A program made the translations under genes and the position numbers. This document shows, piece after piece, positions 1 through 19,938 of a stretch of 32,000 bases of DNA. The notes beneath the pieces are model-generated. The model had not been told where the DNA came from, ran no database searches, and worked only from the letters and a program-made list of their open reading frames with translations. The DNA is from Verrucomicrobiota bacterium (GTDB taxonomy: Bacteria; Verrucomicrobiota; Verrucomicrobiia; Chthoniobacterales; UBA6821): contig WBXG01000002.1 in NCBI GenBank assembly GCA_008932965.1, forward strand, positions 22,567 to 54,566. Reading direction: 5' to 3'. Within the stretch, counting starts at the first letter, position 1, and each line of letters starts with the position of its first letter.

Positions 1-545
1 TCTGGGTAGCCTCCGGCAACAAGTCGCTCTTGGAGAGAGGGAGAAGACTCTTTTGTGTCAGAGCCTTCAATGCGTGGCTTGATTTTGTTAGCTAAAAAAT
101 CTTTCAAAAATTTTCCTGGGTGGTGTTCTTTTTCAGCTTCGCTGAAGGGATGTAGCTGCAGCACTTCCATGCGGCCTGCAAGCGAATCGCTGAGCTGAGG
201 CAGTAGCAGTAAGTTTGCAGAACCTGTAAGAATAAAACGTCCTGGGCGACGGTCATTGTCGACCGAAGTTTTGATGGCGCGAAGTAAGCGAGGGGCCCGT
301 TGTACTTCATCTAAAATAACTCGTTCTGGAAGATTTTTTACAAAGCCAGCAGGATCTTGGAGTGCCGTTAAAAGAATTTCTTCTTGATCTAAGTTGAGAT
401 AGGTATGTTTTGCAAATGCGGTGCGAACCAAGGTGCTCTTTCCGCATTGACGAGGTCCTAGAAGACAAATCACAGGAGTGTCCTTCATGGCCACTTTAAT
501 ACTACCTGTAAGAGGTCTCGGGTAGTAGGAAGAGGTATTTTCCAT
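1..545 (-). CDS. AAA+ ATPase, AAA_14/DUF4143-like family (N-terminal part; gene runs off the window start)
   Basis: Absent from the ORF track because it is truncated by the window edge. My own minus-strand translation from the ATG (complement of 543-545) reads MENTSSYYPRPLTGSIKVAMKDTPVICLLGPRQCGKSTLVRTAFAKHTYLNLDQEEILLTALQDPAGFVKNLPERVILDEVQRAPRLLRAIKTSVDNDRRPGRFILTGSANLLLLPQLSDSLAGRMEVLQLHPFSEAEKE..., with no stop down to position 1. It has Walker A GPRQCGKST and Walker B-like VILDEVQ, with the ILTGS layout typical of this ATPase family. Confidence 0.7.
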   Translation of the reverse strand, partial: MENTSSYYPRPLTGSIKVAMKDTPVICLLGPRQCGKSTLVRTAFAKHTYLNLDQEEILLTALQDPAGFVKNLPERVILDEVQRAPRLLRAIKTSVDNDRRPGRFILTGSANLLLLPQLSDSLAGRMEVLQLHPFSEAEKEHHPGKFLKDFLANKIKPRIEGSDTKESSPSLQERLVAGGYP

Positions 546-557
546 AGAGAGGATATC

Positions 558-643
558 GGGCGTTTGGGGAATTGAGGTGCGGGCGTTTGGGGAATTGAGG
601 TGCGGGCGTTTGGGGAATTGAAGTGCGGGCGTTTGGGGAATTG
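558..643. repeat. Tandem direct repeat, 23-bp unit GGGCGTTTGGGGAATTGAGGTGC, about 3.7 copies
   Basis: Copies lie at 558-580, 581-603 (identical), 604-626 (one G to A change) and 627-643 (truncated). They are head-to-tail with no spacers. The array starts 13 nt upstream of the ATPase start codon. Confidence 0.95.
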
Positions 644-684
644 TAAGGCTGCTATTTGGGGGATAGCAATAACGAATTTAGGAT

Positions 685-868
685 TAGCCCGCATATTTCA
701 TACTGAAGTGTCATGAGGCGCCGTGCAAAGGTTATTAGTACAAGGCGGGCGAAGGATTGGGATGCCGGGCTGTATGTTTCATACTGTCCAAATCACAATT
801 CGAGACCAACACAGTAATGATGAACTTTCCACAAGCCGTAATAGATTTAGTGTGAAATATGCGGGCTA
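685..868. repeat. Intergenic mosaic repeat element 1 (module A plus inverted module B), TA-flanked inverted termini
   Basis: The left terminus TAGCCCGCATATTTCATACTG (685-705) is exact. The right terminus tagtgtgaaatatgcgggcta (848-868) is its inverted copy with 2 mismatches. An internal variant ggctgtatgtttcatactg lies at 768-786. The interior is homologous to 6246-6313 and, inverted, to 2657-2770. Confidence 0.85.
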
Positions 869-918
869 GTCCAGAAAGCACTTTTTTTCTGGAGGTCTAT
901 CTGTTTTCCTTTTCAATC

Positions 919-1392
919 ATGGAAAATTTTATCACTAATAACCAACTAGCTGCACTGGGGGAAAAATATCGTCATGAGGGAAAGCGTCTCGTGTTAACCA
1001 ATGGCTGCTTTGACCTGCTTCACACTGGCCATGTCCGCTATCTGGAACAGGCCCGGCAGTTAGGGGATGTGCTGCTTATTGCAGTCAATAGCGACCGTTC
1101 GGTGCGCGAACTCAAAGGGCCGACACGTCCGTTAAATAATGAACACGATCGTGCTGAGGTTCTCGCTGCATTACGCTGTGTCGATTATGTGACTATTTTT
1201 GATGAATTACGGGTGAGTGATGTGATTCAAAAGCTAAAGCCCGCCATTTATGCAAAAGGGGGTGACTATACCCCAGAAACGCTTGATCTAGAGGAGAGAG
1301 AGGTGTTAGAGGAGTGCGACACGGTTATAGAGATTCTACCTTTAGTCCAGGATCGCTCTACAACTCGATTAATAGAGAGCTTGAGGAGTTAA
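919..1392 (+). CDS. hldC: D-glycero-beta-D-manno-heptose 1-phosphate adenylyltransferase-like cytidylyltransferase (RfaE domain II / HldC type)
   Basis: The ORF track 859..1392 contains LVLTNGCFDLLHTGHVRYLEQARQLGDVLLIAVNSDRSVRELKGPTRPLNNEHDRAEVLAALRCVDYVTIFDE, the nucleotidyltransferase HxGH signature of RfaE domain II. I place the start at ATG 919 (MENFITNNQL) because the ATG at 859 lies inside the repeat terminus. Confidence 0.8.
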   Translation: MENFITNNQLAALGEKYRHEGKRLVLTNGCFDLLHTGHVRYLEQARQLGDVLLIAVNSDRSVRELKGPTRPLNNEHDRAEVLAALRCVDYVTIFDELRVSDVIQKLKPAIYAKGGDYTPETLDLEEREVLEECDTVIEILPLVQDRSTTRLIESLRS

Positions 1393-1436
1393 TACCCGCT
1401 TCCATTGCACGTGGTGAGTAATCCAGCCTCCCTATT

Positions 1437-2597
1437 TTATCTATTTTTTAAGTAAAGTTCCTTAAGGGGTGTGTAGGCAGGTCTGGGATGGCGGTCAATA
1501 TCAACAATCCCCCACCATTCTTCATTAAAAACGTAATCAGGATAGGGGCCTTCTCCTGGTGCTACTATTCCTCCATTATCGTGTGTTAGTGGGGATCCAT
1601 TGGGATCTTTCCACCATTCATCATTCCATTCAAAAATACAGCCTCCAATTAAGACATTTTTCGGATTCACGGCAGACAAATTATTTAATATTTCGGTAAT
1701 AAGGCAGCGAGTAGCGATTTCCTGAGAGGCATCATCTTCGGCATTAATTAAAGTATTAAACGCATCTGCTCCACATTCTCCGATGTAGAGTGGCTTTGTC
1801 ATATGGCTGGCCCATTGATCAAGTCTATTACCAAAGCTCAATCCATGATAAATATTAATACCAAAAAGATCGACTGAATCGAGCTGAGCTAGTTGAGCTA
1901 AATGGGATCTATTTTTTAAAACTCTCGCAGAAACACCTGTGCTCACAGGATGCCTTTTATCAAGCAGTTTGATGTAAGTAGCACTGTTTTTCACGAGTTT
2001 CAAAGAATCCTGAAATCCAAGGCCCTGTGGATGTTTTAGATCCATTTTCTTACTATAAAAAAAGTTGATATCCCATTCATTTCCAATTTCCCAAATGAGA
2101 GTAGAGGGATGGTTTTTTAAAAGTGTTATAGTGGAACTCAGGTTTTGAAAGGAAGTTTGATGACTGCTTAGAACTGGAACAATCGTTCGTAGTTGATATT
2201 TCGTGAGTAGTTTGAGGATGCGTGAATCAATGATTGGAAAGTAAGTTCGAATCGTGTTGATACCTGCAGCGTGCATCATTTGAAAATCATGTTGAATAAC
2301 CGCTAAGTCTTTTACAGTAGGGTTATTGATCATGAGGTCCTCTGGAAAGTTTCCCCCTTTGCGGACAGGGCTATAACAGATTCCCTTCATAATAAAAGGT
2401 TCTCCATGAACTAGCAGTTGCCTTCCAGAAATAAATACACCCTCCTTAGAAGAGAAACTGGTCGCTTTTGCAGAATTCTTTAATGGAGCTAAAGAGGAGT
2501 TTTTTTGAGAAGGAGAAGAAAGTGGAAAAGAAGAGCCTATTCCAGATGAAATAATTATCACTAGTGAGACAAGTAAGAACAGTTTTAATCGCTTCAT
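1437..2597 (-). CDS. Secreted (beta/alpha)8 glycoside hydrolase, clan GH-A (GH5/GH72-like)
   Basis: 386-aa ORF with an N-terminal signal-like segment MKRLKLFLLVSLVIIISSG. It has the motifs GINTIRTY, IWEIGNEWD (acid/base NE), LYIGECGADAF (candidate nucleophile E) and IFEWNDEWWKD. The family assignment is approximate. Confidence 0.7.
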   Translation of the reverse strand: MKRLKLFLLVSLVIIISSGIGSSFPLSSPSQKNSSLAPLKNSAKATSFSSKEGVFISGRQLLVHGEPFIMKGICYSPVRKGGNFPEDLMINNPTVKDLAVIQHDFQMMHAAGINTIRTYFPIIDSRILKLLTKYQLRTIVPVLSSHQTSFQNLSSTITLLKNHPSTLIWEIGNEWDINFFYSKKMDLKHPQGLGFQDSLKLVKNSATYIKLLDKRHPVSTGVSARVLKNRSHLAQLAQLDSVDLFGINIYHGLSFGNRLDQWASHMTKPLYIGECGADAFNTLINAEDDASQEIATRCLITEILNNLSAVNPKNVLIGGCIFEWNDEWWKDPNGSPLTHDNGGIVAPGEGPYPDYVFNEEWWGIVDIDRHPRPAYTPLKELYLKNR

Positions 2598-2656
2598 AAT
2601 GCGTCAAAATATTACTTAAAATAGCCGTGCTAGGCTACAACGAATTGGTAGAGCCC

Positions 2657-2820
2657 TAACCCGCATATTTCATACTGATTCTGCTGCGGCTTGCGAATAC
2701 CTGATGGATACTGCGTCAGCTTCGAATTGCTCCTCGGGCAGTATGAAACATACAGCCGTCGTCCCAATCTATCAGCCTTCGCGGCCTCCTCGTCACGATC
2801 AGTGTAAAATATCCGAACTA
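2657..2820. repeat. Intergenic mosaic repeat element 2 (module B plus tail)
   Basis: Left terminus taacccgcatatttcatactg at 2657-2677 (1 mismatch). Internal variant cagtatgaaacatacagcc at 2739-2757. Degenerate right terminus cagtgtaaaatatccgaacta at 2800-2820. It is nearly identical to 11484-11595. Confidence 0.85.
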
Positions 2821-2893
2821 GATTTTTTTTGTTTGAAAACAAACTTGATGCTTGACTCCTCAACTCCTACTCTCATGGAACATTTTTTCAAAT

Positions 2894-3505
2894 ATGCCTG
2901 CTGAAACATCTTCCATCACTCCCCCTTCTTTATTCATGCTGTGGGAACAACATCGTTCAAAAATAATGATAGCATTACTTGTGGCGATGGGTCTGTTTTT
3001 TATTGTTGGAGTTCTTTTTTTCTGGAAACGCTCAGAGCGTCTTGCTGCAGAGAGCCTGTTGTCGAGTGTCAGTGGAGTAGAGGGATGGCAAAAAGTAGTT
3101 CATCGTTATCCCCACTCTGGAGCTGCTGCTAATGCCTTGTTGCTTTTAGCAGGAGCTCAAGCACACAATCATCATTTTGAAGAATCCAGTAAAACGTATG
3201 ATCAATTTTTGAAGTCCTTTTCACATAATCCCCTGGCCATTTCTGCCTATTTAGGAAAAGCCATGAATGAAGATGCGATGGGGCATGCAGATTGGGCGAT
3301 CCAAGACCTTCAAAAAGCAGTGGGGACCTATCCCAAATCCTATGCTGCTCCTGAGGCATTGCTGCTAGAGGCTCGGATCATGGCTCGGTTGGGTAAAAAA
3401 GAAGAAGCCAAACGTTTGCTGCAGATGATTGCAACCCAGTATCCTGATTCCCTAGTAAACACTATTGTTCTCAAACAACGCGTGGTCAGTCCTAGCCCCC
3501 AATAA
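2894..3505 (+). CDS. Membrane-anchored TPR-like repeat protein (YfgM/YbgF-like)
   Basis: ORF 2852..3505 has one hydrophobic helix (IMIALLVAMGLFFIVGVLFFW) followed by helical repeats with TPR-like A/L/Y spacing. The track start at 2852 is a TTG next to the repeat, so I prefer ATG 2894 (MPAETSS). The function is not known. Confidence 0.55.
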   Translation: MPAETSSITPPSLFMLWEQHRSKIMIALLVAMGLFFIVGVLFFWKRSERLAAESLLSSVSGVEGWQKVVHRYPHSGAAANALLLLAGAQAHNHHFEESSKTYDQFLKSFSHNPLAISAYLGKAMNEDAMGHADWAIQDLQKAVGTYPKSYAAPEALLLEARIMARLGKKEEAKRLLQMIATQYPDSLVNTIVLKQRVVSPSPQ

Positions 3506-3512
3506 AAAAGCG

Positions 3513-3541
3513 TTGATACCCCCCGTGCTGTTCACTAGAAT
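3513..3541 (+). promoter_or_regulatory. Sigma70-like promoter upstream of gyrB
   Basis: TTGATA (3513-3518), a 17-nt spacer, then TAGAAT (3536-3541). It sits 37 nt upstream of the gyrB ATG at 3578. Confidence 0.45.
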
Positions 3542-3577
3542 AGAACATTCGTTTAGATCCCTTTTGAGAGTTTTCCC

Positions 3578-6212
<2,635 letters not shown>

Positions 6213-6245
6213 TCTTTCTCTTGGACCCTCTCTTCTAGAGCAGGT

Positions 6246-6313
6246 TAACCCGCCTTGTACTAATGAGCTTTGCACGGCGCCTCGAGACGAACCAGTATGA
6301 AATATGCGGGCTA
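6246..6313. repeat. Intergenic mosaic repeat element 3 (solo module A, inverted)
   Basis: ttaacccgccttgtactaatgagctttgcacggcgcctcgagacgaaccagtatgaaatatgcgggcta. The terminus at 6293-6313 is exact. The element is the reverse complement of 685-749 apart from a 9-nt subterminal block. Confidence 0.85.
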
Positions 6314-6318
6314 GAGAG

Positions 6319-7911
6319 TTACGTTTTTAGGATTATCGTGTCACGGCACAATTCAGGATCGTGCTCAGGATAATCAAGTGTGTAGTGGAGTCCTCGACTC
6401 TCTTTTCGACTCATCGCAGATTGGACCATAAGCTGTGCCGTGGTCACGAGATTGCGCAATTCCAGAAGATCAGCAGATATTTTAAAGTTCCAATAAAAAT
6501 CTCGAATCTCCATTTCAAGATTTTTTAAACGTGTGGTTGCACGTTGAAGCCGCTTATCAGTTCGTACGATTCCCATGTAATCCCACATGAGGCGTCTGAT
6601 TTCATCCCAGTTGTGATGAATAACTACCCTTTCATCAAGATCCTGGGCATCTCCAGAGTGCCATGCAGGGAGTGCCATAGGATCTTGGTGATGATATTCT
6701 CCTCTGGCATGAGCCTCAGCACGGTGTGCCATCACCAGGGCCTCGAGGAGAGAATTGCTAGCAAGCCGATTTGCTCCGTGGAGGCCTGTGAAAGCTGTTT
6801 CTCCAATGGCATAGAGTCCAGCAATTGAGGTTGTGCCATGAAGATCTGTTTTAATACCTCCACATTGGTAATGAGCTGCCGGAACTACTGGAATCGGTTC
6901 TTGAGTAATATCAATCCCATTATGGAGGCATGTTTCATAAATCTTAGGAAAGCGTTGTTGCAAGAATATGGGGGATTTTGAGCGAATATCGAGATAGACG
7001 CATTCATCTCCCCTTTTTTTCATTTCAGCATCAATAGCACGTGCCACGACATCACGAGGAGCAAGCTCTCGACGAGAATCATAGTGCTCCATGAAGCGTT
7101 CCCCTGCACTATTGATTAAGAGACCACCCTCTCCGCGCACGGCTTCGGAAATGAGGAATGATTTTGCTTTAGGGTGGTAGAGGCAGGTGGGATGGAACTG
7201 CATGAATTCCATATTGGCAATGGCTGCTCCAGCTCGCCACGCTATGGCAATACCATCACCTGTAGCAATGTCCGGATTCGTCGTATAGAGATAGACTTTT
7301 CCGCATCCCCCTGTCGCAAGCACGGTCACATCAGTTCGGATTGTTTCGACACATTCCTTTTTTTCATCAAAAACATAAAGACCCACACAGCGAATGGGTC
7401 CATTCTTTTCACCAAGCTTTTCTGTGGTGATCAGATCGACTGCCATATGGTTTTCTAACAAGGTAATGTTGGGGTGCCTTAAGACAGCCGCAATCAAAGT
7501 TTGTTCAATTTCAAAACCAGTGCGATCCCGAGCATGTAAAATACGACGTTTGGAATGACCTCCCTCTTTTCCTAAATCGAGTTCATTTTTCCCATTCTCG
7601 TTAGTACGCTTATCAAAATCCATTCCGCAGGAAACGAGCTCGGCAATACAAGCAGGTCCCTCCTTAAGTATCGTTCTCACGACTTCTTCATTACAAAGTC
7701 CATCACCAGCAACTAAAGTATCACGAACATGGAGTTCCATGGAGTCCTCATCACTTGTGACGCATGCAATACCACCTTGTGCCCATGCAGTGTTAGAGTC
7801 ACTTCTCGAACGTTTGGTGACAATTGCTACCGAGCCCTGTTCTGCCGCTTTCAGAGCAAAGGTAAGTCCTGCGCTACCACTACCAACAATAACGTAGTTA
7901 AATTGATTCAT
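6319..7911 (-). CDS. nadB: L-aspartate oxidase
   Basis: 530-aa ORF with an FAD-binding N-terminus (YVIVGSGSAGL), the motifs TAWAQGGIA, HPTCLY, ISEAVRGEGG and AAHYQCGGI, and the succinate dehydrogenase/fumarate reductase flavoprotein fold typical of NadB. Confidence 0.9.
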   Translation of the reverse strand: MNQFNYVIVGSGSAGLTFALKAAEQGSVAIVTKRSRSDSNTAWAQGGIACVTSDEDSMELHVRDTLVAGDGLCNEEVVRTILKEGPACIAELVSCGMDFDKRTNENGKNELDLGKEGGHSKRRILHARDRTGFEIEQTLIAAVLRHPNITLLENHMAVDLITTEKLGEKNGPIRCVGLYVFDEKKECVETIRTDVTVLATGGCGKVYLYTTNPDIATGDGIAIAWRAGAAIANMEFMQFHPTCLYHPKAKSFLISEAVRGEGGLLINSAGERFMEHYDSRRELAPRDVVARAIDAEMKKRGDECVYLDIRSKSPIFLQQRFPKIYETCLHNGIDITQEPIPVVPAAHYQCGGIKTDLHGTTSIAGLYAIGETAFTGLHGANRLASNSLLEALVMAHRAEAHARGEYHHQDPMALPAWHSGDAQDLDERVVIHHNWDEIRRLMWDYMGIVRTDKRLQRATTRLKNLEMEIRDFYWNFKISADLLELRNLVTTAQLMVQSAMSRKESRGLHYTLDYPEHDPELCRDTIILKT

Positions 7912-7924
7912 AGAATTGAGAACC

Positions 7925-8830
7925 TTATTTCAGCTTTGCGACCTTCTCGTCACGATCAGTATGAAACATCCGGGTTAACCCAATATTATCAATGAGTCGT
8001 GTTTCGCCCATCTTAACAGCCACAAGAAGGCGAGCAGGAGTCGTGCTAGGAATAATCTTTTTTAGCGGTTGCAGGGTTTGCTCGTCTACAATTTCTATAT
8101 AGTCGATGATGGAATTAGGAATCGATTCAAGGTCTCCTCGCGTCGATTCAAGAAGTGCTGAAACGTTGCTTTCTCCCTCTAGTGTACGTGTTCTGGTTTT
8201 TCTAAGTGCTTCATAAATCTTGGAAGCCACGCTTCGATCTTGTAAAGAAAGCCGTGCATTACGTGAACTCATTGCAAGACCATCTTCTTCTCGTACGGTG
8301 GGGTGGGAAATCACCTCTGTTGGAAAATTGAGATTCCAGACTAATCGACGTGCTATTACAAGTTGCTGCCAATCTTTTTCACCAAAGAGCACGCGATCTG
8401 GGGTAACAATGTTAAAAAGTTTTGTAAGCACAGTAACAACACCGGAAAAATGCCCAGGACGGGAGGCTCCACAAAGATGTTGAGAAAGCTGATTTTCTTC
8501 AACATGAATAGAAGTATCGCAAGGATACATTTCTTCGACACTAGGGTGAAAAATAAGATCAACTCCAGTGCGCTGACACAGTGCTTTGTCAGCTTCAAAA
8601 GGACGTGGGTACCATTCTAAATCCTTCGCGATATTAAATTGCTTTGGATTCAGAAAAATAGAAACAGCAACAGTGCCTGATGTCCCTGCAAGCTCTCGTG
8701 CATGGCTTATGAGGGAGGCATGCCCTTCATGGAGAGCTCCCATGGTCGGGACAAAAACAAGAGGTCGTAATGCATCATTGCATATGCTCTGCATGAGAGA
8801 GACCTGTTCAATGACCTTCATGCTCACCAT
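7925..8830 (-). CDS. panC: Pantoate--beta-alanine ligase (pantothenate synthetase)
   Basis: Contains VFVPTMGALHEGHASLI (HIGH-type motif), AVSIFLNPKQF, FGEKDWQQL, GLAMSSRN and TRLIDN. The last ~16 codons (LTRMFHTDRDEKVAKL) are read from repeat element 4. Confidence 0.9.
   Translation of the reverse strand: MVSMKVIEQVSLMQSICNDALRPLVFVPTMGALHEGHASLISHARELAGTSGTVAVSIFLNPKQFNIAKDLEWYPRPFEADKALCQRTGVDLIFHPSVEEMYPCDTSIHVEENQLSQHLCGASRPGHFSGVVTVLTKLFNIVTPDRVLFGEKDWQQLVIARRLVWNLNFPTEVISHPTVREEDGLAMSSRNARLSLQDRSVASKIYEALRKTRTRTLEGESNVSALLESTRGDLESIPNSIIDYIEIVDEQTLQPLKKIIPSTTPARLLVAVKMGETRLIDNIGLTRMFHTDRDEKVAKLK
7932..7977. repeat. Intergenic mosaic repeat element 4 (terminal fragment) overlapping the panC 3' end
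   Basis: ctttgcgaccttctcgtcacgatcagtatgaaacatccgggtta aligns with 2775-2820 and 13480-13522. The terminus lies at 7957-7977 (3 mismatches). Confidence 0.75.
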
Positions 8831-8870
8831 GGAATAGGACGAAAGAGAATTTTCTCTTGTGGAGTAACTC

Positions 8871-9224
8871 TTAATGTCCCTCTTTTTTAACAGCAGGAGA
8901 AACTGGTGTTGGTAAAGGTATTTCCTTTTTTATCATGGGAGCAGGCTGTTTCATGAGTTGTTCCTGAATTTTTGTTGGGCCGCTCGAGGACCTCGCGTAG
9001 ACCACAGAAATAATCAGCGTGAGTAGAAAAAATAATCCTCCAAGCCAGACTGTGAATCTATTTAAAATCGTACTTGTCTGCGTTCCAAAGAGACTATCTG
9101 TCATGCTGCTTCCAAAGGCCGCTCCGAGGCCTTCGCTCTTGGGACGTTGCATTAAAACAACAATAATCATCAAGAGAGAAACAATAACAAGGGATGTCGT
9201 GAGTAAGGGAAGCAAGAGCCACAT
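8871..9224 (-). CDS. secG: Preprotein translocase subunit SecG
   Basis: Two TM segments flank LMQRPKSEGLGAAFGSSMTDSLFGTQTSTILNRFT, the SecG glycine-rich loop signature. It carries a proline/lysine-rich C-terminal tail. Confidence 0.75.
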   Translation of the reverse strand: MWLLLPLLTTSLVIVSLLMIIVVLMQRPKSEGLGAAFGSSMTDSLFGTQTSTILNRFTVWLGGLFFLLTLIISVVYARSSSGPTKIQEQLMKQPAPMIKKEIPLPTPVSPAVKKEGH

Positions 9225-9245
9225 AGCCGGGGATTATCCTCTGAG

Positions 9246-10415
9246 TTATCCTCTTTTGTAAAGCTGTAAAACAGCATTTCTAGCGGCATGATCTGCCTCT
9301 ATGATTTCTTCTAGTGTAGGAGTGGGGATACTAGGAAGCTGCTGCATCACGGTAGCAACATAATTCCAAATGGAGGGAAAAGAAATTTTCTCCTCGAGAA
9401 AAAGCTCCACGGCTTTTTCATTCGCAGCATTAAGAATGGCAGGCATCGTCCCTCCTCGTGTTCCGGCTTCTCTTGCCAGTTGAAGTGCTGGAAAAAGATC
9501 ATGACGGGGCTTTTCGAAATGAAGTGCTCCAATTTCTGCTAAGTTCAGCGGAGCGCATGGACCAGCGATACGCTGGGGATAGGTGATTGCAGATTGAATA
9601 GGAAGCATCATATCATTCCTGCTCATTTGAGCTAAAAGAGAGCCATCCACAAACTCGACCATGGAGTGAATGATGCTTTCTGGATGAATCACCACATCGA
9701 TTTTTTCCATTGGAAAACCAAAGAGATGGTGCGCTTCGATCATTTCAAGACCTTTGTTAAAGAGAGTTGCTGAATCGATCGTGATTTTAGATCCCATGTT
9801 CCAGGTTGGGTGACGAAGGGCCATGGAAGGAGTCACATGAGCAAGATGAGATGCTTCTGCTTTACGAAATGGTCCCCCTGAACAGGTAAGGATCAGACGG
9901 CGCACGGTAACAGGGTCACGACCTTCCAGGCATTGGAAAAGAGCATTGTGTTCGCTATCGATTGGAAGAACCTGGCGCTTGTATCTCTGAGCGGTGGTCA
10001 TTACTTCATGGCCAGCCATCACCAAAATCTCTTTGCTTGCTATAGCAAGATTCTTGCCTGCCTTTAATGCAGCCAATGCAGGTTTCAAGCCAGTAATACC
10101 GACAATTGCAATCACAATGAGTTCAGCTTCTGGTAAGGTTGCAAGCGTTAGCAATCCCTCCTCACCGTGAACAACCAAAGGTGCAGGGGAGGTAGTAGCG
10201 CATGATTCTATTAAGAGATCAGCATCTGTTTTTTCTTTTGTTGAGATCGCAGAGGGTCTGAACTCTTGAGTAAGTTCTATGAGACGGGGAAGATTATGGT
10301 AGCCAGAAATACCAACAATCTTCATTTGATCAGGAAGTGCTCGGGCCACTTTAGCGGCACTTTCTCCAATAGAGCCGGTGGATCCTAAAACAACAACACG
10401 ACGGGGAGAAAACAT
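9246..10415 (-). CDS. dxr: 1-deoxy-D-xylulose 5-phosphate reductoisomerase
   Basis: Contains VVLGSTGSIGESA, PIDSEHNALFQCL, RLILTCSGGPFR, HPTWNMGSKITIDSATLFNKGLE and IHPESIIHSMVEF, all conserved Dxr motifs. Confidence 0.95.
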   Translation of the reverse strand: MFSPRRVVVLGSTGSIGESAAKVARALPDQMKIVGISGYHNLPRLIELTQEFRPSAISTKEKTDADLLIESCATTSPAPLVVHGEEGLLTLATLPEAELIVIAIVGITGLKPALAALKAGKNLAIASKEILVMAGHEVMTTAQRYKRQVLPIDSEHNALFQCLEGRDPVTVRRLILTCSGGPFRKAEASHLAHVTPSMALRHPTWNMGSKITIDSATLFNKGLEMIEAHHLFGFPMEKIDVVIHPESIIHSMVEFVDGSLLAQMSRNDMMLPIQSAITYPQRIAGPCAPLNLAEIGALHFEKPRHDLFPALQLAREAGTRGGTMPAILNAANEKAVELFLEEKISFPSIWNYVATVMQQLPSIPTPTLEEIIEADHAARNAVLQLYKRG

Positions 10416-10468
10416 TTTATCAGAGAAGGGTTGAGATTGTACAATGCGTCACTTCATCTTTGGATTCT

Positions 10469-11377
10469 CTAACCTTCCCTAACAATGAGCCCTTGCAATA
10501 TAAAATAAAAAATCGGAGCGGTAAAAAGAACGCTGTCGATTAAATCAAGTCCTCCGCCAATCCCTGGCAAGGTATTACTGGAGTCTTTTGTCTGTAGCGT
10601 GCGCTTTAAAAGCGATTCTGCTAAATCACCTGCGATGGCTGCAATGCCTAGAATTAAAGAAATGATGACAACACTCAGGGGCTGCAAGAGGGGTAATTGT
10701 TTTTGAAAAAAGATAAAAAAGAGCCAGCCGCTTAGTAATCCAAAAAAAAGAGCTCCAATGCATCCCTCCAGTGTTTTTGTAGAGCTGACATGCACAAAAA
10801 AAGGATGGCGCCCCAACAAGCTTCCACAGACAAAAGCACCAACATCAGTGAATTTTGTGACGACTAAAAGGAAGAGAACATAATATTGTCCAGTGAGAAG
10901 CCCATTAGCATTATGGGGGGTGAGGTAGATGATTTTTGAAACAAAAGAAAAGAGCCACGGGATATATACAATTCCAAGAAGGGTGAAGGCAATAGCATCT
11001 GCAGCTTCTCGTTCTAGTTTTAAAGAAAAGAGAGTTTTGGCAAAAAGAGTGAGTATTAAAAGAACCAGAAGCAGCGCCTCAAAAATAAAAATGGCTCCTC
11101 CTCCGTTCACCAATGGGCCTCCAAAATGGGGATTACGGAGCAGCCAAAAATTTCCTAAGAGCAAGATGATGCCTGAAAAATAACCGAGGCGCCAATGACG
11201 GGGAATCAACGCTACCCTCAAAAGCCAGAAGTACTCCCAGAGCGATCCGAGTGCTGCAGCAGCAATGAGGATAGAATAACCATTTTCTGATTGTGTGACA
11301 ATGGTTGCAATAATGAGCATCCAGAGCGTCACTGTGCTTAGCAAGCGAGGAACCAGGGATGTAGGAAGGGGCTTCAT
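10469..11377 (-). CDS. cdsA: Phosphatidate cytidylyltransferase (CDP-diglyceride synthase)
   Basis: Polytopic membrane ORF with the C-terminal CdsA signature GDLAESLLKRTLQTKDSSNTLPGIGGGLDLIDSVLF. The track start at 11410 is TTG, so I prefer ATG 11377 (MKPLPTS). Confidence 0.85.
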   Translation of the reverse strand: MKPLPTSLVPRLLSTVTLWMLIIATIVTQSENGYSILIAAAALGSLWEYFWLLRVALIPRHWRLGYFSGIILLLGNFWLLRNPHFGGPLVNGGGAIFIFEALLLVLLILTLFAKTLFSLKLEREAADAIAFTLLGIVYIPWLFSFVSKIIYLTPHNANGLLTGQYYVLFLLVVTKFTDVGAFVCGSLLGRHPFFVHVSSTKTLEGCIGALFFGLLSGWLFFIFFQKQLPLLQPLSVVIISLILGIAAIAGDLAESLLKRTLQTKDSSNTLPGIGGGLDLIDSVLFTAPIFYFILQGLIVREG

Positions 11378-11483
11378 GAAGCTCGAGACTCTAGCGTGAG
11401 TTCTTACCAAAGGGAATCATTTTGATGTCAAAAGACTCGATTCATAGGTGGGAGCACTCCGATTTCCTTCGCCTGTCTTGTAC

Positions 11484-11786
11484 TAACCCGCATATTTCAT
11501 ACCGATTCTGCTGCGGCTTGCGAACACCTGATGGATACTGCGTCAGCCTCGAATTGCTCCTTGGGCAGTATGAAACATACAGCCGTCGTTGCAATCCATC
11601 ATCTTCGTTGACTCGCTCGCTCCCGCTCGTCTCGCCCTTACAGGGCAGTCTCCACCCTGGTCTTCCGAGCGCCGGTGGTGTCTGCATCAGGATTCGCGGC
11701 GCCTCGCGACGAACCAGTATGAAATATGCGGGCTAATGAGCTTTGGACAGCACCTCATAACACTTCAGTATGAAATATGCGTGCTA
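11484..11786. repeat. Intergenic mosaic repeat element 5 (composite: module B, module C, two module A ends)
   Basis: Termini lie at 11484-11504 (R, 2 mismatches), 11715-11735 (F, exact) and 11766-11786 (F, 1 mismatch). The internal variant lies at 11566-11584. 11484-11595 matches 2657-2770, and 11608-11690 matches 13379-13480. Confidence 0.85.
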
Positions 11787-11971
11787 AAATAGTTGGTCTT
11801 GACACGCTCCTCTCATTGTGGTAGCTCAAACTTCTCCTCAAGGACTCAAGAGTTGTGAGTGATGCTTGCTTTCAGCTTTCATTTCTTTAGAATCTCAGTT
11901 CACTGATCCGGGTCTTTTAAACTGATGTACCAAGAGGTGCTGCGAACCCTGATGCAGACAAGGATGGCGGT

Positions 11972-12085
11972 GATCTTCAACGGTAGCTGTATATTTCATG
12001 CTGCCCGAGGAGAAGTTCGAGCCTTACTCTGTATCTATCAGGGTGTTGCAATTCGTCACAGGATCAGTATAAAATATGCAGGCTA
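11972..12085. repeat. Intergenic mosaic repeat element 6 (diverged inverted module B)
   Basis: The reverse complement aligns along its length with 2657-2770. The internal variant gctgtatatttcatgctg lies at 11986-12003. The terminus cagtataaaatatgcaggcta lies at 12065-12085 (2 mismatches). Confidence 0.75.
12046..12075 (+). promoter_or_regulatory. Sigma70-like promoter for recA, located inside repeat element 6
   Basis: TTGCAA (12046-12051), a 16-nt spacer, then TATAAA (12068-12073), or TAAAAT (12070-12075) with an 18-nt spacer. It sits about 37 nt upstream of the recA ATG at 12113. Confidence 0.4.
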
Positions 12086-12112
12086 ACCCTCTTCCCAAAA
12101 ATAAAATATCTC

Positions 12113-13177
12113 ATGGCCAAAACTGAAGAAAATATTGCTACTACCGTCCTCAAACATTCTGGGCTCAGCGAAAAGGCTGTTGCGGCGCGGGCCAAAAATC
12201 TCGATCTTGCGATTCAGCAAATTGCTAAAGATTACGGAGATGGTGCTATCATGAGACTTGGAGCAGAAGGATCTAAAGGGATCTCTGTCATTCCCACTGG
12301 CAACCTTCTTATTGATAGAGCTCTTGGGGTGGGGGGATTTCCGAGGGGACGCATTATTGAAATCTATGGACCTGAGTCCTCAGGTAAAACAACACTCACA
12401 TTAAGTGTGATTGCTCAGGCTCAAAAAAGCGGTGGTCTTGCTGCTTTTATTGATGTGGAGCATGCCTTGGACCCTGCCTACTCACGTAAACTTGGAGTGA
12501 ATCTAGAAGATCTTCTTGTCTCCCAGCCAAGTTCTGGCGAAGAGGCGCTGCGTATTTGTGAAACACTTGTGCGTTCCAATGCACTTGATGTGGTTGTTCT
12601 TGACTCGGTTGCTGCTTTGGTAACCAAAACAGAGCTCGAAGGAGAGATTGGGGACTCTGTAGTGGGAGCTCAGGCCAGACTCATGAGTGCTGCGATGAGA
12701 AAACTTACTGCGTTCATCTCTAAGGCAGATACATGTGTCATATTTACTAATCAGATTCGTGAAAAAATTGGGGTCATGTTTGGAAATCCAGAAACAACTC
12801 CAGGTGGTAAAGCATTGAAGTTTTATTCAAGCGTGCGAATCGATATCCGCCGTATTGGGGCTATCAAAACAACCGACGGAACGGTGACTGGAAACCGAAC
12901 ACGTGTCAAAGTGGTCAAAAATAAAGTAGCTCCTCCTTTTACCGAAGCAGAGTTTGATATTATGTATAACGAAGGTATTTCCAATACTGGCTCCTTGCTC
13001 GACCTGGCACTTGAAAAAAATATTATTGAGAAGCGTGGCTCCTGGCTTAGCTACAAAGGGAATCAACTTGCTCAAGGTCGTGATGCTGCAAAAGTAGCAC
13101 TTAAAAGTGATGCGGCGCTGTATGCCGAAATTGAAGCTGCTGTAAAAGCTAGCCTAGAGGATGAAAAAAATAAATAA
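12113..13177 (+). CDS. recA: Recombinase RecA
   Basis: Contains [16 protein letters not shown] (Walker A), [57 protein letters not shown] and [12 protein letters not shown], which identify RecA unambiguously. Confidence 0.98.
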
Positions 13178-13247
13178 CGCCTATGGAGCAGCTCCATCTC
13201 AATTCCAGAGTTGAGAATAGAGCCTTTTAAAAAGAGTGAGTACTGTG

Positions 13248-13522
13248 GCCGGGCTGTGTCACTTCCGCGTCAATCCAGTGCTCACCTCCTCTGGTATCTT
13301 TCACGCAGTGTACCCAAACTCGAAGTATTCTTCGGGCAGTAGGGACTCATACAGCAGTCGTCAGAATACGTGCCTGCGTTGACTCGCTCGCTCCCGCTCG
13401 TCTCGCCCTTTCAGGGCAGCCTAAAGGCAGGGCAGCCTCCCCCCGCGCTCTCCAGACCGCCGGTAGTGCCTCATCAGCCTTTGCCGTCTCCTCGTTACGA
13501 TCAGTATGAAATATGCGGGTTA
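13248..13522. repeat. Intergenic mosaic repeat element 7 (module B relic plus module C); left end degenerate
   Basis: The terminus cagtatgaaatatgcgggtta lies at 13502-13522 (1 mismatch). 13379-13419 is identical to 11608-11648 except for 1 nt. 13300-13375 aligns with the 3' half of module B. The left boundary is approximate. Confidence 0.75.
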
Positions 13523-13616
13523 AGAAAAAATTATAGTGCTTCTCAAGGGCGATTCTTAATTTCCTAAACCATTATTACAGAATAATTGCAAAAGGGATTT
13601 TTAATCGATTCTGATT

Positions 13617-14474
13617 CTATAAAAAATTGGGAATGAAACTTCGGAGCAATTTCATGGCAACGACATCTTCGACTAAATCCTTCCCTTTTGGTGTTTCTAA
13701 AATCTTAGGAATAGGGGCAAGTTCTTCTGCCTGCATGATCCAGCGAAATGCTTCTAATCCTATTTTTCCTTGGCCTAGATTATCATGGCGATCAACGCGA
13801 GAACCAAGGGAGGCCTTGGATTCGTTGATATGCAATACACAGAGTTGATGAAGGCCGACGATACGATCGAACTCATGAAAGACCTTTTCTGCACCCTGCG
13901 GGCTTGAAAGGTCATAGCCAGCTGCAAACACATGAGCTGTGTCAAGGCAAATACGAAGCCGATCCGGGGAGGAAACTTGTTCTAAAATAGAGGCAAGTTC
14001 CTTGAAAGAAGAACCGAGGCAGCTCCCTTGTCCAGCAGTAGTTTCAAGTGCAATGCGCACCTGAAGATTGGGATGGTCAGCATGAATCTGGTTAAGGCTT
14101 TCCACCACACAACGAATCCCATGAGCAGCTCCAGCGCCAAGATGGGACCCAGGATGAAGAACTAAAAAAGGAATGTGGAGTTGTTCACAACGAATCAATT
14201 CCTGCGCCAGGGATAACAATGATTTTTCATGATTTATTGTTTTCTCAACACCAAGATTAATAAGATATCCAGCATGGGCAACTATAGCTCCAAGCTTGTT
14301 GTGAAGGGGGTGCTGGGTGAATGCAGTCGCTTCGGCTTCCGTAAATGGTGTTGCATGCCACTGCATATTATTTTTTACAAAAATTTGCATTGCCGTGCAC
14401 CCGATATGAACCGCTCTTTCAATCGCATTGCTAGGGCCGCCTTGAGTAGAAATGTGAGAACCGAGTAAAAGCAT
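13617..14474 (-). CDS. nfo: Deoxyribonuclease IV (endonuclease IV)
   Basis: Contains LLGSHISTQGG, IFVKNNMQW, HAGYLINLG, VLHPGSH, LETTAGQGSCLG, ICLDTAHVFAAGYD and VLHINESKASLGSRVDRHDNLGQGKIG, the metal-ligand motifs of Nfo. I start at ATG 14474 (MLLLGSHIS) rather than the TTG at 14501. Confidence 0.9.
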   Translation of the reverse strand: MLLLGSHISTQGGPSNAIERAVHIGCTAMQIFVKNNMQWHATPFTEAEATAFTQHPLHNKLGAIVAHAGYLINLGVEKTINHEKSLLSLAQELIRCEQLHIPFLVLHPGSHLGAGAAHGIRCVVESLNQIHADHPNLQVRIALETTAGQGSCLGSSFKELASILEQVSSPDRLRICLDTAHVFAAGYDLSSPQGAEKVFHEFDRIVGLHQLCVLHINESKASLGSRVDRHDNLGQGKIGLEAFRWIMQAEELAPIPKILETPKGKDLVEDVVAMKLLRSFIPNFL

Positions 14475-14558
14475 GAATGAGGAATTAAATAAGAAGTTCA
14501 AAGATGTTCGGTTTCAGTATTGCTACAACAAATTTTTTCCAAAAAAATGAATTTCTTC

Positions 14559-14586
14559 TTGCACTTGTTTGCATTTCCACTACATT
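14559..14586 (+). promoter_or_regulatory. Candidate sigma70-like promoter of the ribosomal protein cluster
   Basis: TTGCAC (14559-14564), a 16-nt spacer, then TACATT (14581-14586). This would leave a ~100-nt leader before the rpsL ATG at 14695. Confidence 0.35.
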
Positions 14587-14694
14587 CACCCCTCACGGTC
14601 TTCCCAAAGCCTCCTAGTACACATGATTTCATGTCTCTGGGATTCTCTAAAATGCCCTTTAATGAGAGAGGAGGCGAAGCCCCTAATTAACATT

Positions 14695-15105
14695 ATGCCG
14701 ACAATCAATCAACTCGTACGAAAAGGACGCCGCAAGGTATTGGTGAAATCAAAATCACCAGCCCTAGTGAATTGTCCGCAACGTCGTGGCGTCTGTGTTC
14801 AAGTCATGACTCGTACGCCCAAAAAACCGAACTCCGCATTGCGCAAAGTTGCTAAGGTTCGCCTCACAAACGGGCAGGAAGTAATTGCTTATATTCCTGG
14901 AGAGGGACATAACCTGCAAGAACACTCGATCGTTCTAGTGCGCGGGGGACGTGTTAAGGATCTTCCTGGAGTTCGATATCACATCGTACGTGGAACACTT
15001 GATAGTCTTGGGGTAGATGGTCGTCGTCGCAGTCGTTCCAAATACGGTGCAAAACGTCCCAAAGCCGGAGAAGAAGCAAAAGCGACTGGTAAGAAGAAAA
15101 AGTAA
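14695..15105 (+). CDS. rpsL: 30S ribosomal protein S12
   Basis: [14 protein letters not shown]...[22 protein letters not shown]...[20 protein letters not shown] start at ATG 14695, not the upstream alternative start at 14569. Confidence 0.97.
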
Positions 15106-15220
15106 TACCAAGTCAGTAAATTTCGATTAAATAATCATCAAAGTTAACATAAAACTCCGATTTTGTACGGAATAAATATTCTCACATTCGTTCGTAACTA
15201 ACCTGTAACCCTGAAATACC

Positions 15221-15694
15221 ATGTCCCGCCGCAAACGCGTCATTCATAAAGAAGTCAAACGTGATCTTCGCTATGCCAATCCTTTGGTAGCGCGTCTTAT
15301 TACTTCGGTGATGCGTGAAGGCAAGCGCTCGATCGCAGAAAAAATTGTCTACACGGCCATCGAAACGACACGTTCAGTCAGCGATGTCATCGATCCTCTC
15401 GATGTGCTCCAAAAAGCAATTGAAAATATTCGCCCTCGTCTCGAGGTAAAAAGCCGACGGGTTGGAGGTGCAACCTATCAAGTGCCAATGGAAGTACCGA
15501 TGGATCGCTCATTGGCTCTAGCAATGCGCTGGATCGTAGGTTTTGCTCAAAAGCGAAAAGGAGTTCCCATGGCTAAAGCTCTTGCTAACGAACTCAAAGA
15601 TGCTCACGCGGGACAAGGTGCAGCTATCAAAAAAAGAGATGATCTTCACAAGATGGCCCAAGCTAATCGGGCATTTGCTCACTTTCGTTGGTAA
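15221..15694 (+). CDS. rpsG: 30S ribosomal protein S7
   Basis: MSRRKRV...[23 protein letters not shown]...[14 protein letters not shown]...[10 protein letters not shown]. Confidence 0.97.
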
Positions 15695-15747
15695 TAAAAA
15701 TATTATTATTAAGTACCGTTCCTTCTTTTTCCGCATTTTATTCTACC

Positions 15748-17907: not shown

Positions 17908-17942
17908 CCAACGTACACTTCAACTTTACAACTCAACTTTAC

Positions 17943-18254
17943 ATGGCCGCTGAACAACGCATACGCATTCGACTAAAAGGTTTTGATTTTCGCCTTCTTG
18001 ATATTTCTGCATTGGAAATTGTTGAGACTGCAAAACGGACTGGATCCAAGGTTGCAGGACCAATTCCTCTACCTACACATATTGAGAAGTTCACGGTCAA
18101 CCGTTCGCCCCACGTCGATAAAAAATCGATGGATCAGTTCGAAATTAGAACTCACAAACGTCTTTTAGATATTCTAGAACCAACAGCAAAAACAGTTGAT
18201 GAACTTAGGAAGCTCAATTTGCCTGCAGGTGTTGATATCTCCATTAAAATCTAA
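17943..18254 (+). CDS. rpsJ: 30S ribosomal protein S10
   Basis: [15 protein letters not shown]...GPIPLPT...[25 protein letters not shown]. Confidence 0.97.
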
Positions 18255-18299
18255 AAAATTTTCCTTTAAATTGCACTCTACTCAATCGCTATAAATTTT

Positions 18300-18971: not shown

Positions 18972-18994
18972 TTACCTCTAGATTCATTCCATAC

Positions 18995-19624: not shown

Positions 19625-19630
19625 TATTTT

Positions 19631-19915: not shown

Positions 19916-19938
19916 TATTTATAGAAACTTTCAATACT

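Follow-up and report, generated by a model that had tools for sequence, protein, structure and literature searches.

A 176-bp MITE family, probably of the IS1380 type, in the intergenic DNA of a few freshwater Verrucomicrobia

The repeats found in the window, i.e. the 32,000-nt stretch of Verrucomicrobiota DNA analysed here, are very probably copies and fragments of one 176-bp non-coding MITE that has IS1380-family ends and a 4-bp target duplication at YTAR/TTAA. The MITE family, which populates the spacers between genes of a few freshwater Verrucomicrobia, is new, but of an already known type of element.

The terminal 21-mer CAGTATGAAATATGCGGGCTA has 10 matches at up to three mismatches in the window, at coordinates agreeing with those of the preliminary description, against none expected from 100 shuffles, so the repeat observation made there is real. 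The internal variant has four matches (0.01 expected), and a repeat search of the window reveals longer homologies, of 94% between 2656-2774 and 11483-11601 and of 88% between 685-749 and 6249-6313. Eight MITE copies or fragments, totalling 1,116 nt, are present in the window; as first described, they represent a non-autonomous family with terminal inverted repeats, are richer in G+C than their surroundings (52%, versus 43% for the window) and all lie in spacers or at gene ends, upstream of ribosomal-protein operons. The reported absence from the later part of the window is confirmed by a profile search with the element, which gives no match there beyond 13519, as is that of a transposase gene, in that tblastn with the partner IS1380 transposase finds no match, and a screen for the IS4/IS5-type Y-R-E-K motif none, in the window. 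Outside it, the family is abundant both elsewhere in the genome and in relatives; the motif scan returned at least 81 stretches, almost all in two Verrucomicrobia MAGs, and the matches listed together with the window provide 363 ends and 122 complete copies.

The unit is 176 nt long, of the form CCC…GGG (5'-CCCGCATATTTCATACTGAT ... ATCAGTATGAAATATGCGGG-3'), is without a transposase gene, and has 20-nt terminal inverted repeats with distinguishable ends, X and Y. Among the matches listed and the window, the spacing of 90 of 127 end pairs is 170-189 nt, with a mode of 176 nt. The proposal that three modules, A, B and C, are shuffled in the manner of BOX, BIME or Correia elements mostly does not hold, since all subfamilies align end to end as a single 176-nt unit; modules A and B are its Y-half and X-half, readable in either orientation, and module C is an internal GC-rich insert of longer variants. 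The apparent shuffling is thus a result of orientation, truncation, tandem or nested insertion and the optional internal insert. What does stand is mosaicism at a finer scale, in which blocks of subfamily sequence recombine to give chimeras (ce, fd, ca and be). The family is like Correia, BOX and BIME repeats in being short, abundant and mostly intergenic, and Correia elements also have terminal inverted repeats. Correia elements, though, have TA as their duplication, and BOX and BIME are put together from separate modules and are not known to carry inverted repeats or duplications, whereas the MITE has a fixed unit of 176 nt and duplicates 4 bp.

The sole intact full copy in the window (688-865, 178 nt; feature 684-869) runs X to Y on the minus strand, belongs to subfamily 'ba' and is flanked by TTAG (684-687) and CTAG (866-869); it matches model positions 1-176 (nhmmer, E 1e-43) and is 90-93% identical to copies in two other MAGs. 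A plus-strand copy that has lost about 20 nt internally and has a right repeat that is degenerate (2660-2817, 158 nt; feature 2656-2821) matches model positions 1-174 (nhmmer, E 9e-40) between CTAA (2656-2659) and CTAG (2818-2821), and occupies the spacer between divergently transcribed glycosyl-hydrolase and TPR genes. Two of the stretches described as module A are solo Y-end fragments, as is the copy of the terminus at 7932-7974, all three on the plus strand. The first, at 6246-6310 (feature 6246-6314), comprises model positions 114-176 followed by CTAG, and is located where gyrB and nadB converge, between their 3' ends. The fragment at 7932-7974 (feature 7932-7978; model positions 134-176, then TTAA) contributes, on the minus strand, the final 17 codons of panC (LTRMFHTDRDEKVAKLK before the stop), and the Pfam pantoate-ligase match of the panC product stops at residue 283 of 301.

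In the plus-strand long variant at 11487-11732 (246 nt; feature 11483-11736), module C (11613-11679) interrupts the 176-nt unit near model position 125-127; this copy is bounded by a perfect CTAA/CTAA duplication and resembles copies in three other loci (L062, L018 and L028; 86-90% identity). It is abutted by the other of the two module A stretches, a solo Y-end fragment on the same strand (11737-11783; feature 11737-11787; model positions 131-174), the two having one CTAA in common and another CTAA following the fragment. The stretch 11972-12085, earlier read as a diverged module B, is part of a degenerate full-length copy on the minus strand (11908-12082, 175 nt; feature 11908-12086; nhmmer model positions 2-175, E 8e-27), in which the X-end repeat is intact and followed by CTAA (12083-12086), and the opposite repeat has decayed (CCGGGTCTTTTAAACTGATG). 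The last element, a 5'-truncated long variant on the plus strand (feature 13316-13523), consists of model positions 59-125 (13316-13381), module C (13382-13466) and model positions 124-176 (13467-13519), ends at 13519 before TTAA, and separates the convergent recA from the gene that follows; the orthologous recA spacer in another locus (L026) has the same kind of element, with a further copy nested at a CTAA within module C.

The TA following every recognisable end forms the middle of a target-site duplication of 4 bp at YTAR, as shown by 121 pairs of flanks, by three nested insertions and by an orthologous empty site. YTAR follows 327 of the 363 ends among the matches listed and in the window; TTAA is used at 48% of ends among the matches listed, CTAG, CTAA and TTAG being the other targets. 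In the 121 flank pairs, likewise from the matches listed, position 1 is identical in 91 (59.7 expected) and position 4 in 105 (65.5 expected), and the combinations CTAA/CTAA, TTAG/TTAG and TTAG/CTAA occur eight times, four times and once, respectively. For the three nested insertions, uninterrupted paralogues have a single CTAA or TTAG. At the pheT site one locus (L013) reads GAG-TTAA-[176 nt]-TTAA-TAG and its orthologue (L096) GAG-CTAA-TAG; these empty-site comparisons reveal both insertion and duplication of the target. Flanks that differ from one another within YTAR occur in about one-fifth of MITE copies among the matches listed, and in five of the nine Verrucomicrobia-type and metagenome IS copies examined, and have to be put down to mutation or to recombination between copies.

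The preliminary description took TA itself as the possible duplication, as expected of MITEs of the IS630/Tc1-mariner type. The presence of TA after every end fits that proposal, but the bases beside TA are also constrained, as Y and R, and match between flanks as a direct repeat; the nested insertions, at non-palindromic sites, have all four target bases on both sides; and the pheT insertion duplicates four bases, its orthologue differing at the first base only (C for T). Moreover, the transposase found within these termini is of the IS1380, not the IS630, type. Duplication of TA only is contradicted by these results, and the IS630/mariner link, which is extremely unlikely, was rejected.

The search for a transposase gene bounded by the same termini identified an IS1380-family element in a related MAG (L058, 278-1856). 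It is 1,579 bp long, starts with CCCGCATATTTCATACTG after CTAA, ends with GTGAAATATCCGGG before CTAG, and encloses a 451-aa ORF that matches Pfam PF13701 (E 5e-163) and scores 393 bits against the NCBIfam IS1380 model (cut-off 180). Further copies of this IS (1575-1578 bp) are flanked by TTAA/TTAA, TTAG/TTAG or CTAA/CTAA, and one of these copies abuts MITE copies on the same contig (L083). Counting against the partnership, the transposase was seen outside the window's own species, and the 528 kb of the two MAGs contain only one autonomous copy. Moreover, only about 18-20 nt per end are common to MITE and IS, and the MITE is therefore not a simple deletion derivative of the IS.

We infer that this IS of approximately 1.58 kb most likely provides, in trans, the DDE transposase that mobilises the MITE. 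Bound to the repeats, the enzyme would make staggered cuts, 4 nt apart, in a 5'-YTAR-3' target (TTAA in approximately half of cases) and join the ends, with gap repair then producing the 4-bp duplication. An IS5-family transposase is a highly improbable alternative; IS5 of Escherichia coli also duplicates 4 bp at 5'-YTAR-3' (PMC5009759), but has a different transposase family and different termini, and the Y-R-E-K screen of the loci gave only one IS4-family and one IS1380-family gene and no IS5-type partner. The element bounded by the MITE termini (CCCGCATATTTCA) is itself of the IS1380 family. IS5-group ends generally start with GG or GA, not CCC.

The assignment to the IS1380 family is consistent with the properties of ISPa33/ISPosp7-type elements, the termini of which also start CCCGGAT and to whose transposases the partner protein is 52-55% identical; like the partner, they are approximately 1.6 kb long with a single DDE transposase of the PF13701 type. 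YTAR flanks of 4 bp are present in ISPa33 (CTAA, CCCGGAT…ATCCGGG, CTAA) and in an Acidovorax IS1380 element (CTAG before CCCGGATATTTCAC and CTAG at the other end). By contrast, the window elements are of 176 nt and non-coding, have only the terminal 18-20 nt in common with the IS, and belong to a family that far outnumbers it. No description of an IS1380-associated MITE was found in the searchable literature, which is not proof of absence. The TTAA preference, 4-bp duplication and CCC…GGG ends are also those of eukaryotic piggyBac and its MITEs (PMC10813416), and the transposases of piggyBac are seen as equivalents, in eukaryotes, of the IS1380 type (PMC5718144). Unlike piggyBac, the MITE has a target relaxed to YTAR (TTAA at 48% of ends among the matches listed), and the partner transposase matches bacterial IS1380 models, with no piggyBac-type domain reported.

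Copies in the window are probably retained where they do little harm, in intergenic spacers and at the very 3' ends of genes; none lies in the densely packed ribosomal-protein operons beyond 13.6 kb. That the repeats are instead functional host elements, e.g. a structured RNA, a terminator or a REP/BIME-like protein-binding site, might be proposed from their frequent location at gene ends, their G+C content above that of the genome, and the folding of single copies better than shuffled controls (z -4.4 and -3.8, the latter for the 11487-11732 copy, at -50.9 kcal/mol as single-stranded DNA). The consensus fold of 58 copies, however, keeps only a 16-bp stem formed by the terminal repeats, with double changes only in a 3-bp local hairpin of the X arm and no conserved long-range pairing of the interior, and Rfam gives no match to the element, whether at gathering scores or with E values of up to 1. 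Given also the target duplications, nested copies and orthologous empty site, and the occurrence of copies in both orientations and in coding sequences, such a non-mobile origin is very unlikely; individual copies may still have secondary effects on the host.

In the main subfamilies, the unit with its duplication (176 nt + 4 nt) amounts to 180 nt, i.e. 60 codons, and one frame stays open, whichever way the element is oriented, in about 75-80% of copies. This frame, frame 2, is open in 44/55 and 41/55 copies, compared with 12-26% in simulations, and the others almost never are; since copies share ancestry, the excess rests on few independent lineages. Among the matches listed and the window, 10 of the 122 complete copies lie within long ORFs, all in this same frame. 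The genes interrupted, in related genomes, include pheT, rnpA, malQ and comEC. In PheT the insert falls between positions corresponding to residues 183 and 187 of PDB 7n8y_B, and the L013 protein is 91% identical to its L096 orthologue with a gap of exactly 60 residues.

Such in-frame copies could be artefacts of gene calling or assembly, or pseudogenes, and the open frame an unselected product of composition and shared ancestry. The data are MAGs, the copies are not independent, many public 'hypothetical proteins' of 49-107 aa are mere intergenic copies, in three of the ten genic cases the copy comes before the first Pfam domain and could precede the true start codon, and in the 'ba' subfamily (178-183 nt) the frame is not open. 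Against this, two independent assemblies (L013 and P0121, 93% identical) have the pheT insert, with the gene intact on either side, rnpA, malQ and comEC retain their domains before and after the insert, the single open frame is the one used in all ten genic copies, and stops are depleted in that frame only, in both orientations. The artefact explanation is, overall, unlikely, and selection would be the cause of the open frames.

In-frame insertion into genes, seen in related genomes, goes beyond what the preliminary description could draw from the window sequence alone. It resembles the behaviour of Rickettsia palindromic elements, short palindromic mobile repeats found between genes and in frame in unrelated housekeeping genes, to which they add a peptide segment (PMC10969869). 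The MITE differs from these in its host phylum, i.e. Verrucomicrobiota (MAGs), in that its target duplication, inverted repeats and candidate transposase are all identified, and in its genic share, which is about 8% of copies among the matches listed, compared with about half in some Rickettsia palindromic element families. Because the unit with its duplication is 180 nt long and carries an open frame, an insertion within a gene may be tolerated as a 60-residue peptide insert.

The 21-nt terminal motif of the window, CAGTATGAAATATGCGGGCTA, is real: it has 10 matches at three or fewer mismatches, all where the preliminary description had placed them, against 0 expected from 100 shuffles, and the internal variant motif is likewise real (4 matches versus 0.01 expected). 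In an independent repeat search the longer homologies appear as well, at 94% between 2656-2774 and 11483-11601 and at 88% between 685-749 and 6249-6313. The motif also occurs in relatives: a search with CAGTATGAAATATGCGGGYTA in one genome per species returned at least 81 stretches; among those listed, nearly all are from two freshwater Verrucomicrobiota MAGs, i.e. Spartobacteria Kiruna_bin-02438 and Chthoniobacterales Tobar2m-G38. The terminal motif had no match in viral contigs. The statistics are drawn from 81 loci (528 kb) plus the window and, because the loci were picked for motif content, densities are biased upward; the 560 kb of related DNA so assembled holds 122 complete copies and 119 unpaired ends.

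Searching with the inner 18 bases located 363 ends, which pair into 127 elements, 90 of them with a spacing of 170-189 nt, the modal length being 176 nt. The unit has 20-nt terminal inverted repeats (CCCGCATATTTCATACTGAT at the start, its complement at the end), just inside which the X ends (subtypes b, c and f) and Y ends (a, d and e) diverge; in every subfamily one end is X and the other Y. The size range, with its mode at 176 nt and variants of 246-295 nt, is under the ~600-bp limit for MITEs, and there is no transposase gene, the sole open frames in the unit being 58-codon read-throughs without a family match. The elements have a G+C content of 52%, compared with 43% for the genome. This is a genuine MITE family, unannotated before; the part of the literature that was searched holds no description of it or of an IS1380-linked MITE.

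The preliminary description had divided the same DNA into three shuffled modules, likened to BOX, BIME or Correia-type mosaics. Two of these, A (the Y end) and B (the X half), are indeed sets of homologous parts, not as separate modules, but as portions of one 176-nt unit; the three-module mosaic is not supported by the end-to-end alignment, in which all subfamilies fit one unit of 187-191 columns. The conserved centre of that unit (GGGCAGTATG..CATACAGCC) is what had been described as the internal variant motif, a CAGTATG heptamer being common to centre and repeats. What was called module C is extra GC-rich sequence, 67-95 nt long, that the 246-295-nt variants have inserted near model position 125-127; 21 of its 23 matches lie inside copies (its sites are window 11613-11679 and 13382-13466 and 21 further loci), and it was not seen to have ends or a duplication of its own. 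A YTAR site within module C (CCTAAAGG) is itself the target of further insertions. Finer mosaicism is real: ce, fd, ca and be are chimeras in which blocks of different subfamilies have recombined. REP/BIME elements are 20-40-nt palindromes without inverted terminal repeats or duplication, whereas the MITE is 176 nt long and has both.

In the window, a profile search identifies eight copies or fragments, totalling 1,116 nt, in six spacers among the coaD-like, glycosyl hydrolase, TPR, gyrB, nadB, panC, dxr, cdsA and recA genes; as far as 13.6 kb, the MITE accounts for the greater part of the non-coding sequence. The first, a full copy of the 'ba' subfamily, lies on the minus strand at 688-865, and it is this single copy that had been read as module A plus inverted B at 685-868. 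There follow, on the plus strand, a full copy with an internal deletion (2660-2817), a Y-end fragment in the gyrB/nadB spacer (6246-6310), a second Y-end fragment (7932-7974), a long variant with perfect CTAA/CTAA flanks (11487-11732) and a Y-end fragment abutting it (11737-11783). A degenerate full copy spans 11908-12082 on the minus strand; the inverted copy previously delimited at 11972-12085 is real, its extent covering the right 114 nt only of this element. The last is a 5'-truncated long variant on the plus strand (13316-13519), beyond which, as had been noticed from the sequence, the profile search finds no copies in the window. The region after 13519 consists, by ORF sizes and order, of tightly packed ribosomal-protein operons, which would leave no tolerated insertion sites. 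The fragment at 7932-7974 supplies the last 17 codons of panC (LTRMFHTDRDEKVAKLK); at 7925-7978 these codons and the stop come from a truncated MITE end, read in the one frame that genic copies elsewhere keep open.

Two further features of this part of the window may be recorded. A 23-nt unit (CGGGCGTTTGGGGAATTGAGGTG) is repeated five times in tandem at 534-671, the array stopping ~16 nt short of the first MITE copy; in minus-strand reading the array coincides with the beginning of an AAA_14/DUF4143 ATPase gene or immediately precedes it, and this gene, seen in L086, continues beyond the edge of the window. The gyrB gene (3578-6212) is broken into an ORF at 3578-4147 and another at 4107-6212, which overlap within an A/T-homopolymer-rich stretch; this suggests a frameshift from assembly error; a real frameshift is less likely.

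The detailed target specificity of the MITE is apparent from the four bases beyond the terminal GGG, which are YTAR at 327 of 363 ends (TTAA 173, CTAG 81, CTAA 43 and TTAG 30). The preliminary description noted a TA at the termini, which it took to be either a target-site duplication or, equally, a part of the terminal repeat. The flanks of 121 complete copies indicate four duplicated bases: left and right tetranucleotides agree at position 1 in 91 copies versus 59.7 expected, and at position 4 in 105 versus 65.5. Direct non-palindromic pairs are found as CTAA/CTAA (8) and TTAG/TTAG (4), with a single inverted arrangement. Empty-site comparison confirms insertion at three nested sites and at an orthologous pheT site. 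In each of the three nested copies the filled site has two CTAA or TTAG tetranucleotides and the uninterrupted paralogues one; in pheT the insert-bearing sequence is GAG-TTAA-[176 nt]-TTAA-TAGAAAAA and that of the empty orthologue GAG-CTAA-TAGAAAAA. From these four empty sites it follows that the duplication is of 4 bp, at YTAR, and not of TA. A 2-bp duplication with the Y and R belonging to the repeats is ruled out by the three nested insertions at non-palindromic targets, and is also contradicted by the surplus of CTAA/CTAA and TTAG/TTAG pairs. Adjacent copies often have one TTAA in common. The orthologous spacer in the Tobar MAG also contains copies, one of which is nested at the CTAA of module C, where the window has an empty site.

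The search for an autonomous partner gave no transposase between widely spaced repeat pairs in the loci, the wide pairs in L078, L055 and L005, considered as autonomous copies, simply enclosing ordinary genes between two MITEs. Likewise, an all-against-all BLASTP of the 517 locus ORFs yielded no multi-copy transposase, translated MITEs alone being recovered. A screen of the loci for the Y-(2)-R-(3)-E-(3/6)-K motif picked out two genes, one of IS1380 type in L058 and one of the IS4 family in L037. The latter was rejected as partner since it is not bounded by the termini, its sole terminal-repeat match being an adjoining 220-nt MITE; its contig (CAIKYO010000408.1, 2,031 bp), with this MITE of Verrucomicrobia type, is binned in a Burkholderiales MAG and is probably mis-binned.

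By contrast with the IS4-family gene, that in L058, a 1,983-bp Kiruna contig, is within an element of 1,579 bp (278-1856) whose ends, CTAA|CCCGCATATTTCATACTG … GTGAAATATCCGGG|CTAG, enclose it. For the 451-aa product, the Pfam PF13701 match has E 5e-163 and the NCBIfam model "IS1380 family transposase" (NF033539) gives 393 bits, the cut-off being 180. Relatives of the transposase number in the thousands in metagenomes, typically on 1.5-2.5-kb contigs; the fetched copies are 1575-1578 bp, the set overall having 1575-1579 bp, CCC ends and a single ORF of 437-451 aa. Their flanks are TTAA/TTAA (L082, L083), TTAG/TTAG (L090) and CTAA/CTAA (L092); five copies, including that in L058, have unequal left and right flanks, each still YTAR. 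The IS ends (…TTTCACATTAG on the left, …TTTCATACTGAG on the right) have their counterparts in the X and Y ends of 'ba' copies, the similarity between IS and MITE ending after ~20 nt. In L083 the IS abuts MITE copies, with one TTAA common to the IS and a MITE. A transposase gene bounded by MITE termini, for which the preliminary description had suggested a search, was thus found in related genomes (L058, with copies in L082-L085), not in the window's own genome; no IS1380 transposase is encoded in the window.

One and the same IS1380 copy is present in L084 and L085; its right flank is identical in the two, the left flanks being CTAG and TTAA. Unequal flanks within YTAR are seen at several copies of both IS and MITE and suggest recombination between copies. 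Beside the IS1380 copies there is a weak Y1-transposase match in L082 (1502-2419) and an IS21-like pair (IstB and a Mu-type transposase C-terminal domain) in L083 (1-1607), so that the surroundings in both loci look like nests of insertion sequences.

Members of the IS1380 family are ~1.5-2 kb long and contain one ORF; their ends begin with CC and they duplicate 4-5 bp. IS1247, for example, is 1672 bp with a 5-bp repeat (PMC3281130). Two plasmid relatives of the L058 element, ISPa33 (52% protein identity; CTAA|CCCGGATTTCTCATGA…|CTAA) and an Acidovorax IS1380 element (55%; CTAG|CCCGGATATTTCAC…|CTAG), are built alike; its termini and target are therefore characteristic of an already known clade of IS1380. 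The MITE is best explained by mobilization in trans by an IS1380-family transposase, which would leave a 4-bp YTAR duplication. The IS630/Tc1-mariner link proposed initially from the TA termini is not sustained, the gene between MITE termini in the loci examined being of the IS1380 family. IS5, which targets YTAR (PMC5009759), has the 4-bp YTAR duplication in common with the MITE; the motif screen, however, gave no IS5-type gene in the loci, the partner is of the IS1380 family, and the MITE termini start CCC.

There is also a resemblance to eukaryotic piggyBac, with which the IS1380 type has been paired (PMC5718144) and which duplicates TTAA and has CCC-type ends (PMC10813416). The MITE likewise prefers TTAA (173 of 363 ends, the rest mostly other YTAR) and has CCC…GGG ends. 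The Pfam scan, however, returned PF13701 and PF01609 only and no piggyBac-type domain; the resemblance is functional and does not amount to membership.

Structured RNA was considered as a further reading and was rejected. Single-strand folds of individual copies have z values of -4.4 and -3.8, but in a consensus fold of 58 copies the 16-bp terminal-repeat stem alone is conserved, with no conserved long-range interior pairing and with compensatory double changes confined to a 3-bp local hairpin in the X arm. Rfam gave no match in the whole window at gathering scores and, at E up to 1 over 500-13700, matched no element, the one (chance) snoRNA match being inside a gene; a tRNA scan of the window found none.

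The most interesting feature of the MITE is its in-frame, two-orientation coding tolerance. The unit and its duplication (176 nt + 4 nt) make 180 nt, i.e. 60 codons. Where an ORF is open for at least 60 codons on each side, a copy was considered genic; this applies to 10 of 122 copies, all 10 of which are read in a single frame (…A|CC CGC ATA TTT CAT ACT = TRIFHT … QYEICG). In the PheT of L013 the insert is between residues 183 and 187 of a solved homologue, between the tRNA-binding and B3/4 domains; a second assembly (database entry P0121, 849 aa) has the same insert, and a 91%-identical orthologue (P0122, 789 aa) has exactly 60 residues fewer. This empty pheT allele was found in the protein database, the fetched loci containing no orthologues of interrupted genes. 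In RnpA the family profile is picked up again past the element, at position 41, MalQ has ~69 additional residues at the element site, and in ComEC the element interrupts the gene between two domains; three genic cases are weaker, the copy being upstream of the first recognizable domain. The rnpA of the Kiruna MAG (L027, 28-651, minus strand) appears to have a complete and a partial element in tandem and in frame, between profile positions ~40 and 41.

Among the 176-nt copies, which represent an effective sample of few lineages because they share ancestry, the frame is open in 44 of 55 from X to Y, in 41 of 55 from Y to X and in 30 of 55 in both orientations, compared with 12-26% per orientation in simulations. 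The remaining frames have 1-5 stops per copy, and the 'ba' subfamily (178-183 nt) is without the open-frame property. It may be, although we regard it as rather improbable, that the 176-nt subfamilies have been shaped such that unit plus duplication is exactly 60 codons and, in the single frame that can be used, is stop-free in both orientations. By analogy, since the transposase is a bacterial counterpart of that of piggyBac, targeting TTAA-like sites, excision might be seamless. Rickettsia palindromic elements, for which parallel behaviour inside genes has been reviewed (PMC10969869), similarly insert in frame into unrelated protein-coding genes; the host phylum differs.

The window represents a third, related organism beside the Kiruna and Tobar MAGs. 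Its ribosomal-protein region (13625-20255) has 82.6% identity with a Tobar contig, and individual repeat copies have 90-93% identity between genomes. A JGI metagenome contig has the same sequence as window 1-3423; the overlapping public contigs found are all 100% identical to the window and give no information on insertion polymorphism in its population. Copies are usually closest to another copy of their own genome (median 94.9%, as against 90.9% for the other MAG), and the main subfamilies are all present in both MAGs, which suggests that the subfamilies are old and have gone on amplifying in each lineage.

For annotation of these genomes, the 176-nt unit should be masked. Querying the protein database with one translated copy yielded nothing but 36 small ORFs, all of Verrucomicrobia-type MAGs; large host proteins were not among them, probably owing to the word index. 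In these entries (P0241-P0276) intergenic MITE copies stand in translation as 'hypothetical proteins' of 49-107 aa, in at least 36 clusters, the named sources being Verrucomicrobia or Chthoniobacterales MAGs. Spurious "hypothetical proteins" of this kind number in the dozens in public databases, and among genuine gene ends that of panC, at least, derives from an element.

The family links IS1380 to a MITE that has CCC…GGG ends and makes a clean duplication of 4 bp (YTAR/TTAA), on the bacterial side of the piggyBac relationship, and offers hundreds of natural insertion events for study. It is a second system, outside Rickettsia, in which an in-frame mobile repeat is tolerated in housekeeping genes, with the filled and empty pheT alleles as a natural test pair. 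If the pheT insert is translated, an element peptide, e.g. LTRIFHTDSAAACEH, would be joined to PheT sequence, and if excision is seamless, such 60-residue inserts would be reversible polymorphisms. Were the 60-codon proposal true, a selfish element could colonize even essential genes, such as pheT and rnpA, in small gene-dense genomes.
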